A DNA stretch of 64,000 nt. Source: Eledone cirrhosa (Eukaryota). Under the pieces are notes generated by a model, which saw nothing but the letters and a program-made list of their open reading frames with translations, ran no database searches and was not told the DNA's origin. Both the position numbers and the translations under genes were made by a program. Where the stretch lies: positions 31,248,001 through 31,312,000 of the forward strand of contig OZ024751.1 in assembly GCA_964016885.1 (NCBI GenBank), given 5' to 3'. How positions within the stretch are numbered: position 1 is the first letter of the stretch; each line of letters starts with the position of its first letter. Shown here piece after piece: positions 13,598 through 34,450 of the stretch.

Positions 13598-13655
13598 ATA
13601 CTATGATCATTTCAATGACCGGGTTCCGTATGAATCCAGTGATTTCATCAGGTAT
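13598..13655 (-). ncRNA. Type I hammerhead ribozyme motif (PLE pseudo-LTR)
   Basis: ATAC-CTGATGA-AAT C ACTGG A TTC atacg GAA C CCGGT C ATT-GAAA-TGATCA-TA-GTAT: stem I ATAC/GTAT, palindromic stem III ATGATCAT, AUA site, AATAAA immediately downstream. Confidence 0.85.
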
Positions 13656-13911
13656 TCGAAATATAACAAAGGAATATGTAAAAACCATTGGTCCGAAAAT
13701 CAGAGAGAGAGCATGACTGACCAACTAACTGTTTTCACCTTGGTCCTGTTATTTTATTCATAATATATATATATATATATATATATATATACATACATAC
13801 ATATATATACATATGTATATACATATGTATATACATATGTATATATATTAGAAAGTGAGGTTTTTTTACAAAATGAAAAATAACCGGTGTTCTACATGAG
13901 TGAAAGTATAA

Positions 13912-14022
13912 AGAAAAAAAGATGAAATCGAAAATGCAACAGGAGTCTTATTTTCAAAAAAAATATATATATTTTTTAAAAAATAAGACTCCAGTTGCAT
14001 TTTCGATTTCATCTTTTTTTCT
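13912..14022. repeat. About 110-bp near-perfect palindrome
   Basis: AAAAGATGAAATCGAAAATGCAACAGGAGTCTTATTTT ... AAAATAAGACTCCAGTTGCATTTTCGATTTCATCTTTT. Confidence 0.9.
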
Positions 14023-14044
14023 ATATATATATATATATATATAT

Positions 14045-14387
14045 TCATTCATTTCATTTCATTTCATTTTACATCCGCTTTTTCCCTGCTTGCAAGGGTG
14101 GGACGGGAACTGATTCTGGCTTGATTTCTACAACTGGATACCCTTCCTAACACCAACCTCATTTACAGTGAGTGCTGGGTGCTTTTTTGCCGTGGCACCT
14201 CCATGACCACTTTGTAGTGGAATGATAGGAACCCCAGTCCTATCATCTCATTTCTACAGCTGAGTAAACTGGAGCAATATGAAATAAAGTGTCTTGCTCA
14301 AGGAAACAACACATCACACGGTCTGAGAATTGAACTCACAATCTTTCGATTGCAAGGCCAATGCTCTAACCACTAAGCCATGTGCCT
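14045..14387 (-). mobile_element. tRNA-derived SINE with RTE-derived 3' tail
   Basis: A box TGGCTTAGTGG, B box GAGTTCAATTC; 3' part matches the 3' UTR of the RTE at 14968-15540; near-identical copy at 53655-53990. Confidence 0.85.
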
Positions 14388-14967
14388 ATATATATATATA
14401 AAAAAGATGAAATCGAAAATGTGTGTATATATATATATATATATATATATATATATATATATACACACGCACATGCATGTATGTATAGTTTTAACAGATG
14501 AAAGGCCTTCTCCTAAGCTGTAAAAAAATCAATCAATAATGATATGTCAGGTAAACTAGGTGAATGTTTGTAAAGCAGTAAGTTAACTAAGCTTAGTCAG
14601 CAAACCGGTTTTCTGTCCTGGTTGTATCAGTTTCGCTTCACTTTTTACATATGTAATTATATCGTTAGTAAAATGTTTTGTTGTTGTTGTTTAACACCAG
14701 GTCAATCCTGACCAAACTGACCTACTATCAAAGGTATTTCACTATTAATTCTCCTGTGTTTTTGCCTATCTATAACTAAGTAGTTCAATATAAAGACACA
14801 CATAGACAGACAGACATCCACACACATCTATATATATATATATCATCATCACCGTTTTATGTATATTCGTCCACGCTAGCATGGGTTAGATGGGTTGTCC
14901 TGTTGTGGGCGACGTTAGGTCGGGTGACCTTGTCTTGCTCATACGAGAACTGATATATATATATATC

Positions 14968-15540
14968 ATCATCATCATCGTTTTACGTCCGTTCTTCCAT
15001 GCTAGCATGGGTTAGACGGGTTGTCCTGTTGTGGGCAATGCCTGATCAGGTGATCATATCTTGCTCATACGGGAACTGATTCTGGCTTGATTTCTACAGC
15101 TGGATGTCCTTCCTAACACCAACCTCATTTACAGTGAGTGCTGGGTGCTTTTTTCCGTGGGACCTCCACGACCACTTTGCAGTGGGAGGGTGTGGGGGCA
15201 TATTGTCTATATGCTTCAGCTTCGGCTTGGTCCTGTGGGGGGGGGGGGGGGTCTTCTGTATTACTATGTGACGCCAGAGGTCACGGTTGTGTGTCATTGC
15301 TCTTGAGAGGTGCAATTGGGTAAAGTCGGCCTTTATCACCTCATCCCAGGTCTTCTTGAGTCTCCCCACTCCGCGGCTTCTATCGACTTCTAGTGCTCTG
15401 CACCTTTTTATGCAGCTGTCATCCTTCATACGCATCACATGTCCATACCAACGTAACCTCCTCTCCTGCACACAGCGTTTGATTCCTCTGATGCTCAGTC
15501 TCTCTCTCAATTTGTATACTTTGCTGTTCGCATATATTAC
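14968..15540 (-). mobile_element. 5'-truncated RTE LINE (ORF C-terminus, 3' UTR, (GAT)n tail)
   Basis: LRERLSIRGIKRCVQERRLRWYGHVMRM...GRLKKTWDEVIKAD; homologous to 42776-43749. Confidence 0.9.
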
Positions 15541-29283: not shown

Positions 29284-29319
29284 CCCCAGTTGATGGATGT
29301 GAATCCGAAATATATAGGG
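29284..29319 (+). ncRNA. Decayed minimal hammerhead motif
   Basis: CCC-CAGTTGA-T-GGAT gtga ATCC-GAAA-TATA-TA-GGG; stems intact but core differs from CTGATGA at 2 positions. Confidence 0.5.
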
Positions 29320-29694
29320 ACTATTAAATCTCTCCCAAGGTAACTCTCTCTTGTATTTTTATTTTTATCCTTTTACTCTTCCCTCCATTCTACACATCTC
29401 ACACATCTTATACACACCACGCATCTCAACGTACACCCACTTACATCTCTCTCTCCACCACCGGACCTTGTTACCCGGAAATTTACCCATTTGCATTGTC
29501 GAGGCTTCCAAACGACTTATAGATATTTACTTATTGTTCCACAATGCTTCAAGCAAACTTCAATACTCTCATATATATATATATATATATATATATATAT
29601 ATATATATATATATGTATGTATATATACATATATATACATATATATATATATATATACATACATATATATATATAAGTCTAGGACGTTTTATAT

Positions 29695-29948
29695 ATATAA
29701 GTCTAGGACGTTTTTGTGGCACCTCGTTGGTTCGAGCACCAGTTGGGATAGGAAGAAATCATCCATGAAGTCAAGAAGCGATTCCACTGCTTCCCTGTCA
29801 GAGGCTGAGGCAGAAGAACCTGGTGGCAGGCTGTTTGTGGGCCAGTCAACTCCGGGGAGGTTGAAGTCCCCCATCATTAAGAGGTTGTCAGGGTGACACT
29901 CTTGGATGAAACACTTTATGCTGTTGAGGCATTCCTTGAAGCATGGTA
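29695..29948 (-). mobile_element. LINE apurinic-endonuclease fragment (CR1/L2-like)
   Basis: [14 protein letters not shown]...[24 protein letters not shown]. Confidence 0.9.
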
Positions 29949-32900
29949 CATATATATATATATACATATATACATATATATATATACATATATATATATA
30001 CATATATATATATACATATATATATATATACATATATATATATACATATATATATATATACATATATATATATATACATATATATATATACATATATATA
30101 TATACATATATATATATATACATATATATATATATACATATATATATATATACATATATATATATATACATATATATATATATATACATATATAAATATA
30201 TATATACATATATACATACATATATACATATATACATACATATATAAATATATATATATATACATATATACATATATATATATATACATATATATATATA
30301 CATATATATATATATACATATATATATATACATATATATATATATACATATATATATATATACATATATATATATATACATATATATATATATATATATA
30401 TATATATACATATATATATATATACATATATATATATACATATATATATATATACATATATATATATACATATATATATATATATATACATATATATATA
30501 CATATATATATATACATATATATATATATACATATATATATATATACATATATATATATATACATATATATATATACATATATATATATACATATATATA
30601 TATATACATATATATATATATACATATATATATATACATATATATATATACATATATATATATACATATATATATATACATATATATATATATACATATA
30701 TATATATATACATATATATATATATACATATATATATATACATATATATACATATATATATATACATATATATATATACATATATATATATATACATATA
30801 TATATATACATATATATATATATACATATATATATATACATATATATATATATACATATATATATATATACATATATATATATATATATATATACATATA
30901 TATATATATACATATATATACATATATATATATACATATATATATATACATATATATATATACATATATATATATACATATATATATATACATATATATA
31001 TATATATATATATACATATATATATATACATATATATACATATATATATATACATATATATATACATATATATACATATATATATATATACATATATATA
31101 TATACATATATATATATATACATATACATATATACATATATATATATATATACATACATATATATATATACATATATATATACATATATATATACATATA
31201 TATATATATACATATATATATACATATATATATACATATATATATACATATATATATATATACATATATATATATATACATATATATATACATATATATA
31301 TATATATATATATACATATATATATATACATATATATATACATATATATATATACATATATATATACATATATATATATACATATATATATACATATATA
31401 TATATACATATATATATATATACATATATATATATACATATATACATATATATATACATATATATATACATATATATATATATACATATATATATATACA
31501 TATATATATATATACATATATATATATATACATATATATATACATATATATATATACATATATATATATACATATATATATATACATATATATATATACA
31601 TATATATATATACATATATATATATATATACATATATATATACATATATATATATATACATATATATATACATATATATATATATACATATATATATACA
31701 TATATATATATATACATATATATATACATATATATATATATACATATATATATATATACATATATACATATATATATATATACATATATACATATATATA
31801 CATATATATATATATACATATATACATATATATACATATACATATATATACATATATACATATATATACATATACATATATATATATATACATATATATA
31901 TATAATATACATATATATATATATACATATATATATATATACATATATATATATATACATATATATATATATACATATATATATATATACATATATATAT
32001 ATATACATATATATATATATACATATATACATATATATATATATATATATATATACATATATACTATATATATATATATACATATATATATATATATATA
32101 TATATACATATATACATATATATATATATACATATATATATATATACATATATATATATATACATATATATATATATATACATATATATATATATACATA
32201 TATATATATATATACATATATATATATATATACATATATATATATATACATATATATATATATACATATATATATATATACATATATATATATATACATA
32301 TATATATATATACATATATATATATATACATATATATATATATACATATATATATATATATACATATATATATATATACATATATATATACATATATATA
32401 TATACATATATATATACATATATATATACATATATATATATATATATATATATACATATATATATACATATATATACATATACATATATATATATACATA
32501 TATATATATACATATATATATATACATATATATACATATACATATATATACATATATATACATATACATATATATACATATACATATATATATATATACA
32601 TATATATATATATACATATATATATATATATTATATATATATATATATATATATATATATACACATATATATATATACATATATATATATATACATATAT
32701 ATATATATATATACATATATATATATATATATACACATATACATATATATATATACATATATATATATACATATATATATATATATACATATATATATAT
32801 ATATATACACATATACATATATATATATACATATATATATATACATATATATATATATATACATATATATATATATATACATATATATATATATATACAT

Positions 32901-34295
32901 ATATATATATATATACATATATATATATATATACATATATATATATATATATATATACATATATATATATATATACATATATATATATATATACATATAT
33001 ATATATATATATATATACATATATATATATACATATATATATATATATACATATATATATATATACATATATATATATATATACATATATATATATATAC
33101 ATATATATATATATATATATATATATACATATATATATATATACATATATATACATATATATATATATATACATATATATATATATATATACATATATAT
33201 ATATATATATACATATATATATATATATACATATATATACATATATATATATATATATACATATATATATATATATACATATATATACATATATATATAT
33301 ATATACATATATATACATATATATATATATACATATATATATATATACATATATATATACATATACATATATATACATATACATATATATACATATATAT
33401 ATATACATATATATATATACATATATATATATATACATATATATATATATACATATACATATATATACATATATATATATACATATATATATATACATAT
33501 ATATATATACATATATATATATATACATATATATACATATATATATATACATATATATATATACATATATATATATACATATACATATATATATATATAT
33601 ACATATATATATATACATATATATATATACATATATATATATATACATATATATATATATATATATACATATATATATATATATACATATATATATATAT
33701 ATATATACATATATATATACATATATATATATATATACATATATATATATATACATATATATACATATATATATATACATATATATACATATATATATAT
33801 ATATACATATATATATATATACATATATATACATATATATATATACATATATATATATATACATATATATATATATATATATATATACATATATATATAT
33901 ATATATACATATATATATATATATATACATATATATATATATATACATATATATATATATATACATATATATATATATATATATACATATATATATACAT
34001 ATATATATATATATATATACATATATATATATATATATACATATATATATACATATATATATATATATATACATATATATATATATATATACATATATAT
34101 ATATATATACATATATATATATATATATATATACATATATATATATATATATATACATATATATATATATATACATATATATATATATATACATATATAT
34201 ATATATATATACATATATATACATATATATATATATATATATATACATATATATATATATATACATACATATATATATATATATACATATATATA
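29949..34295. repeat. About 4.3-kb (TA)nCA microsatellite
   Basis: Direct inspection. Confidence 0.97.
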
Positions 34296-34380
34296 AAACT
34301 ACGGTCTTGATTATTCAATTCCAGTATTGGTAGTCATCTTGAATAATCAAAACCGTAGTGGTATGCCATATTTCAAATCA

Positions 34381-34450
34381 TATATTTTGCCTGATGAGGA
34401 CGTACTGAAAAAACAACACAGTACCTCTGAAATATATATAATAAAGTATA
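34381..34450 (+). ncRNA. Type I hammerhead ribozyme motif (same class as 27315)
   Basis: TATATTTTGC-CTGATGA-GGA C GTACTG (11 nt) CAGTAC C TCT-GAAA-TATATA-TA-ATAAAGTATA; first stem I pair mismatched; downstream flank resembles 27380-27420. Confidence 0.7.

Follow-up and report, generated by a model that had tools for sequence, protein, structure and literature searches.

Hammerhead ribozymes have been described from several Penelope-like elements (PLEs), and two published sets come closest to the locus considered here. Those of Hydra-clade PLEs (Craig et al. 2021, PMC8557442), among them Hydra-1_Obim, are of type I, lie on the sense strand near the 3′ end and have a palindromic stem III, and in several rows the basal pair of stem II is U·U; the elements have a DKT motif, a CxCx5C linker, a C-terminal GIY-YIG-type endonuclease and insertion at (TA)n. 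Those collected by Cervera and de la Pena 2014 (PMC4209133) from D. willistoni, Aedes, rotifer and shrimp have a long helix II and a palindromic helix III and were proposed to act as dimers. In general, dimers formed in tandem transcripts have been proposed as the cutting form of PLE hammerheads whose palindromic stem III is short (PMC4209133, PMC6765202). PLE hammerheads are slow in vitro (PMC4209133), and one of them needs the protein of its element and is dispensable for insertion in vitro (PMC11167929). The traits listed for both sets are shared by the hammerheads described here, three of which lie in a window of 64,000 nucleotides (nt) from Eledone cirrhosa (assembly GCA_964016885.1, contig OZ024751.1, positions 31,248,001 to 31,312,000 of the forward strand). 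Judged from their sequences, the carriers are Hydra-clade PLEs together with a derivative lacking an open reading frame (ORF). Element type, palindromic stem III, AUA triplet, dimer cleavage and high copy number were known already, and the surprise is moderate; what appears to be new in this known class of hammerhead is a fixed cytosine on the 5′ side of stem II that is kept unpaired.

Fold of the three hammerheads in the window

The three hammerheads (copies A, B and C; Table 1) have the core CUGAUGA, and all residues of the type I core (C3 U4 G5 A6 N7 G8 A9, G12 A13 A14, A15.1-U16.1, H17; definition from PMC3088659) are present in each. The first-pass annotation of this stretch had proposed that their stems II, although different in sequence, share one architecture of 3 base pairs (bp), a C·C mismatch and 5-6 further bp, and all three positions agree with it: AAT-C-ACTGG/CCGGT-C-ATT in copy A, AAG-C-GCACCA/TGGTGT-C-CTT in copy B and GGA-C-GTACTG/CAGTAC-C-TCT in copy C. 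Stem II is followed in every copy by GAA, an 8-nt AU....AU segment and A17. These segments (ATGATCAT, ATATGTAT and ATATATAT in copies A, B and C) make up the palindromic stem III, which is found together with the AUA cleavage triplet in all three copies, as annotated.

A pattern of core plus stem III matches the window 3 times against a mean of 0.02 in 300 dinucleotide-type shuffles, and the genome-wide pattern, in which only the core and AU-NNNN-AUA are fixed and stem II is left free, matches the 3.0-Gb genome 86,435 times against 196 for a reversed control, so the matches in the window are not due to chance. Although the consensus of the catalytic core is shared with the Rfam hammerhead families, their models match none of the three copies at E up to 10, and a search of the whole window against Rfam returned only microsatellite matches among the 150 of 462 listed. 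The Rfam models leave this hammerhead architecture uncovered. Rfam misses about 86,000 hammerheads in one genome, as would descriptors demanding a fully paired stem II.

In silico, copy B takes the drawn fold, with pairing probabilities (P) of 0.93-0.99 in stem II and 0.77-0.89 in stem I, and the copy A monomer folds weakly (P of stem II bp 3 = 0.07). The first pair of stem II is mostly U·U among the relatives of copy A, so that the 3 bp below the mismatch are a U·U plus 2 bp in most of them. Stem I of copy C begins with a C·A mismatch (34390/34441) followed by 9 pairs, where the relative L054 has U-A at this core-proximal pair, and with this mismatch the hammerhead of copy C is probably impaired. 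The window copies are solitary truncated remnants and probably inactive in place.

Table 1 Element remnants and hammerheads in the window, numbered from its first nucleotide
Feature	Positions	Strand	Hammerhead core and predicted cut	Fixed C and stems	Context
5′-truncated tail of ORF-less family A element	13401..13762	-			between (TA)n runs
Copy A, type I hammerhead	13598..13655	-	core 13651-13645; predicted cut between 13602/13601	fixed C 13641 opposite C 13617; stem III 13610-13603; stem I 4 bp	
3′ tail of Hydra-clade PLE, family B	27222..27421	+			ends at (TA)n
Copy B, type I hammerhead	27315..27379	+	core 27323-27329; predicted cut after 27371	fixed C 27333 opposite C 27356; stem III 27363-27370; stem I 8 bp	
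Short 3′ remnant, family C element	34296..34500	+			after long (TA)n tract
Copy C, type I hammerhead	34380..34451	+	core 34391-34397; predicted cut after 34440	fixed C 34401 opposite C 34425; stem III 34432-34439	

State of pair 4 across the genome

The C·C mismatch at pair 4 of stem II had been annotated as invariant from the three window copies. Among the 86,435 genomic matches, which are pattern counts and may include nested or chance matches, C·C accounts for about 55,550 (by subtraction; about 64%), C·U for 22,444 (26%) and C·purine for 3,661, the latter comprising 371 with G (C-G, 0.4%) and hence 3,290 with A (C·A, 3.8%). The 5′ C itself is kept in 94.5% and is absent from 4,779 (5.5%; control 175). 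Conservation of C·C in the wider alignment had been set beforehand as one of the points on which the claim turned, and the invariant C·C did not survive it; since 94.5% of the matches keep the 5′ C and only about 64% are C·C, the fixed feature is an unpaired 5′ C at pair 4 whose partner is C, U or A, not G.

Whole families have C·U or C·A at this position. One large family group (E) dominates the first 100 C·U matches listed, and about half of the first 100 C·purine matches listed belong to one C·A family (G). By eye, neither the first 100 listed matches with C-G nor the first 100 listed non-C matches form families of their own; they are chance matches and members of the same families that differ by a deletion or a single base. 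The closed C-G pairs (371/86,435) are spread across all families.

Family-level conservation and covariation

Copies were clustered with pair 4 masked, using 154 distinct copies from the fetched loci (L numbers; metagenome loci excluded), and medoids were taken from the 16 clusters having two or more copies. Pair 4 is unpaired in 16/16 medoids and has C on its 5′ side in 16/16, always exactly three positions from the core, whereas the other eight stem II positions are paired in 11-16 of the 16, with two to four different 5′ bases each. When 16 representatives (15 cluster medoids plus family G) were aligned with MAFFT, the fixed 5′ C was the sole invariant column outside the searched motif. All 8 flanking stem II pairs show compensatory change on both sides, as do 16/21 named pairs overall, compensatory change being seen in stems I-III, and the paired fraction is 83.6% in stem I, 87.5% in stem II and 97.9% in stem III. 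The covariation score is 0.623 against 0.278 in shuffles, 0/500 of which reach it, and slid registers give at most 0.18. On a tree of 19 representatives, which is rough and weak, the 5′ C shows 0 changes, its partner 5 and the other 5′ stem II positions 2-7. These figures come from related representatives, so their cells are not independent, and most were fetched by patterns requiring the 5′ C; the unbiased support is given by the 86,435-match and non-C counts. Compensatory change around a fixed mismatch, as the first-pass annotation had it, is thus borne out, and a hammerhead subclass with a long covarying stem II around such a mismatch is real. The feature is real and selected-looking, and the elements that have it are of a known class.

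A Watson-Crick partner for the fixed C in the flanks was ruled out, as no conserved G able to pair with it at a fixed offset was found within 25 nt on either side (best G column 7/19). Stem I varies in length and sequence between families, being 4-5 bp plus a loop in families A, D and F and 8 bp in B, C, E and G, and has no conserved partner base; a U is found at position 1.7 in 14/19 representatives.

Carrier elements

A reverse transcriptase (RT)-endonuclease frame lies upstream of the hammerhead and in the same sense in L031, L032 and L033 (family B), L069-L073, L078-L080, L084 and L085 (E), L074 and L076 (G) and L090 (C); in L090 the family C hammerhead lies downstream of Hydra-type ORF fragments. 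The distance from ORF to hammerhead is mostly 1.0-1.9 kb, and 1.5-1.7 kb in L031/L033. ORFs with DKT, KDHK, YRDD and CxCx5Cx5C lie upstream of the hammerhead in L031, L033, L069-L074, L078-L080, L084, L085 and L090. Besides RWT, the 821-aa open frame of L069 contains DKT, KDHK, YRDD, CxCx5Cx5C, YFGST and CxxCxxE, which are Hydra-clade hallmarks according to Craig et al. 2021 and follow the same order as in the Hydra proteins of the supplements (PMC8557442). As in that clade, there is a single ORF with the RT followed by a C-terminal endonuclease, DKT, a CxCx5C linker and a CxxC near a conserved E. The place of RWK is taken by RWT/RWI in family E, and RWK is found in the sister lineage L319. 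The assignment was made by motifs and homologues, the Hydra-clade reference proteins being compared from the supplement text (PMC8557442); the trees held ORFs from the same genome and database homologues, and in them the ORF-linked carriers form one clade (98/97; also 88/92). The endonucleases of families B, E and G share 43-48% identity with one another. Among named database homologues, the best is from Argonauta (39%), which would fit an octopod-like host, and a Pfam search with three ORF pieces gave no match.

Genomic matches show (TA)n insertion, pseudo-long terminal repeat (pseudo-LTR) tandems and inverted 5′-truncated copies, and are arranged as divergent inverted pairs and as tandems in direct orientation (L071, L073, L079, L089 and L121) that end at (TA)n. 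In L071, a repeat-ORF-repeat copy, a hammerhead lies on each side of the ORF; they are 3,940 nt apart, and the predicted cut site of the first is 215 nt before the start codon. For families D, F and H, no link to an ORF was found among the fetched loci. Two rows labelled by proximity were dropped from the ORF-linked carriers after inspection: in L034 an inverted copy and unrelated sequence lie between the family A hammerhead and the ORF, and in L316 a (TA)n run separates the family C2 hammerhead from an ORF that groups elsewhere in the tree.

The family A tail in the window is 84-90% identical over about 330-350 nt to genomic copies. The full family A unit is a 2,908-nt non-coding direct tandem (L121:168-3125, and L089; about 2.9-3.1 kb) with terminal repeats of about 420 nt and internal duplications of about 230 and 510 nt, and many copies are 95-97% alike. 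The full 2.9-3.1 kb unit contains no ORF of 140 aa or more and, compared with PLE proteins by tblastn, gives no match at E<0.1; the 30 loci examined likewise gave neither an ORF nor a tblastn match, and family A is filed as a non-autonomous derivative. The ORF-less family retains the fixed C. The family B tail in the window matches the 3′ end of L031 at 84% identity across 172 nt and L033 at 84-85% across 184 nt, and the family C remnant is 94-96% identical to L054, L055 and L102. The latter starts with a small inverted piece (about 34298-34358) folding at -25.5 kcal/mol.

Comparison with described hammerheads

The hammerheads differ from those of published Hydra elements at pair 4, which by eye is mismatched in 0/26 Hydra rows, the octopus element included (PMC8557442 File S2). 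Their stem III is AU-NNNN-AU, whereas the Hydra rows have 3-4 bp plus a centre of 1-3 nt starting AC (PMC8557442). The elements are also larger, with 3′ untranslated regions of 1.0-1.9 kb and units of 3.7-3.9 kb, compared with published Hydra elements of under 3 kb (PMC8557442). The D. willistoni row in Fig. S3 of PMC4209133 has the same 8-nt AU....AU palindrome and AUA triplet. Yet the consensus in that paper has an extra base after A9 and G10.1-C11.1, while here there is no extra base and the first pair is A-U, G-U, G-C or U·U; a U·U at the base of stem II is already known (PMC3088659, PMC7229834, and the Hydra rows of PMC8557442). Pair 4 is mismatched in 1/56 rows of the same figure, S. purpuratus 1, a single example with C·A in a minimal hammerhead. 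A fixed pair 4 C mismatch is thus absent from the 26 Hydra rows and 55/56 PLE rows (PMC8557442, PMC4209133), lists that came from descriptors favouring paired stems and whose figures were compared as text renderings; the variants of Lünse et al. 2017 fall outside this comparison. The annotated view that the variant is not known from described consensus models stands in part, since the fixed pair 4 C was not found in the Craig and Cervera lists but the palindromic stem III with AUA had already been published for D. willistoni. In a metagenome scan covering 1 of 64 parts, 116 loci were retrieved, 3 of which passed a loose pairing filter and 0 of which had a paired stem I, and no outside relative was found.

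Family A resembles animal non-LTR retrozymes (PMC7229834; bioRxiv 10.64898/2026.07.22.740005) in being non-coding and tandem with a type I hammerhead. However, its unit is about 2.9 kb compared with a few hundred bases in the retrozymes described there, its copies, truncated and inverted, are scattered in the manner of a PLE, and it is without the canonical loop-loop motif. Family A is probably PLE-derived. As for abundance, more than 100,000 hammerheads in one genome have been reported for the axolotl (PMC7229834).

Proposed dimer pairing through stem III

Within one strand, the two bases at the centre of the 8-nt stem III are unable to pair. Yet they are complementary in 16/16 representatives, with four pair types (UG, UA, AU and CG), and in 149/154 copies, which supports pairing between dimer partners. 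In silico, stem III forms no hairpin and gives a self-duplex of -2.2 to -10.5 kcal/mol. Both traits of dimer-type PLE hammerheads, the short palindromic stem III and the tandem arrangement, are present. Of four triplets compared in a viroid hammerhead, AUA cut most slowly (PMC1636495). Family D also includes variants (L108:650 and L048:895) with a CUGAAGA core and a (UA)n stem III of 10-12 nt, in which pair 4 is still C·C.

Possible roles of the fixed cytosine

The reading we prefer, at a little short of an even chance, is that these are type I hammerheads in the terminal repeats of Hydra-clade PLEs and of their ORF-less derivative, predicted to cut as dimers, in which the fixed C may act as a specific contact, most likely for the RT-endonuclease of the element. 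Two hammerheads lying 2.9-3.9 kb apart in a tandem transcript would join by base pairing of their 8-nt palindromic stems III and, by cutting after AUA, set free an RNA of unit length. At an in silico cost of about 5-6 kcal/mol, the mismatch would keep the lower 3 bp of stem II marginal, and binding of the fixed C would stabilise the active fold. A specific contact is favoured because there is no conserved flanking G, no shared alternative pairing and no uniform stem I geometry, and because the hammerhead of an Anolis PLE showed cleavage only with the protein of the element (PMC11167929). The specificity of the C is further suggested by its 0 changes against 5 at its partner, by its being the sole invariant column outside the searched core, by its constant spacing of three positions and by the scarcity of closed C-G pairs. 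That the contact is a protein is suggested by the single clade of ORF-linked carriers, by the C kept in the ORF-less family and by a stem I that offers no conserved partner base. It could further be speculated that the C is a recognition switch, bound by the Hydra RT-endonuclease to turn on an under-folded hammerhead and kept by the ORF-less parasites for recognition in trans; we consider this more specific version doubtful. If it were true, a single nucleotide of which thousands of natural variants exist would give access to the question why PLE hammerheads act slowly by themselves and are assisted by protein.

Several observations weigh against the preferred reading. Hammerhead cleavage was not needed for insertion in vitro (PMC11167929), and inverted pairs that share a non-C or C-G variant show that such RNAs can still be inserted. 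The five partner changes, none of them to G, are only suggestive, and the families are related and mostly fetched with patterns requiring the 5′ C. Two abundant Hydra-type lineages with long open frames have no hammerhead core in the stretches examined: no CUGANGA core is present in the full spacer L318:2830-3945, which also lacks any Rfam match, or in L323:3450-5200 (1.8 kb behind the ORF), contrary to the published statement that Hydra elements always have canonical hammerheads. Finally, an RNA contact to the backbone or sugar edge would equally need no conserved partner, so that protein and RNA are barely separated; a protein contact is, we infer, slightly favoured.

An RNA contact, tertiary or through a metal ion, could be made without any protein to stem I or to the dimer partner, replacing the loop II-stem I contact that is impossible for a stem II of 9-10 bp. 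The fixed distance of the C from the core fits this, given that hammerhead tertiary contacts are sensitive to one-bp shifts in stem II (PMC3088659), and in canonical metazoan type I hammerheads a C·A seems to lie directly above the 4 bp of stem II (Fig. S1 of PMC4209133, as a text rendering), much as family G has C·A above 3 bp; the frequent U at 1.7 may point the same way. Yet we think it rather unlikely, as a conserved G partner is missing, stem I is 4-5 bp plus a loop in some families and 8 bp in others, and PLE hammerheads are described as being without the characteristic tertiary interactions (PMC6155905). The mismatch may instead be a brake only, weakening the lower stem II and making cutting slow or chaperone-dependent with no specific contact. 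Closing pair 4 in silico gains 4-7 kcal/mol for the hairpin in 19/21 rows and raises the median P(bp 3) from 0.33 to 1.00 (21 rows), the first stem II pair is often U·U or G·U as well, and the partner of the C may be any base except G. However, any mismatch would weaken the stem, whereas the 5′ base shows 0 changes against 5 on its partner, and a pure brake leaves unexplained why this base remains C and keeps its spacing from the core; an inhibitory C-G12 pairing shared by the rows was ruled out, exceeding 0.1 in only 2/21. We judge this explanation unlikely, and very improbable is one in which the C arose as an ancestral accident and was simply inherited within one clade, without selection. 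All ORF-linked carriers do fall in one clade of a single genome, pairs 3 and 7 change rarely too (2 changes on the 5′ side) and the 116 metagenome loci held no true relative, but the carrier endonucleases are diverged (43-48%), the opposite base has changed repeatedly, all eight flanking pairs have changed on both sides, and dead copies readily lose an unpaired C, which is often in CpG. Lying outside the core and kept unpaired in families that have diverged deeply, the C offers a ready test site for hammerhead activation.

Other hammerheads and features

Other hammerheads are present in the window. Those at 26694(-), 56874(-) and 37160(+) are ordinary minimal PLE-type hammerheads with an extra base after A9, a 4-bp stem II and no real stem III; stem I of the one at 37160(+) is broken. 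A third family, at 38147(+), 63302(+) and 63094(-), has a stem II of U·U plus 3 bp, a 6-bp stem I, a 4-bp stem III with an 8-nt loop and a GUA triplet. Among the fetched loci, L053:2839, L062:159, L071:7859, L098:4938 and L322:303 represent other families with a very long stem II and a 10-nt palindromic stem III. The window also contains a 421-aa open frame with a repeat region (57820-59085, -), likely a host gene exon, in which the repeat region is followed by what we take to be PDZ-like sequence. The segments at 15094-15633(-), 42734-43579(+) and 55223-56182(-) are presumably fragments of the RT C-terminus of non-LTR retrotransposons.

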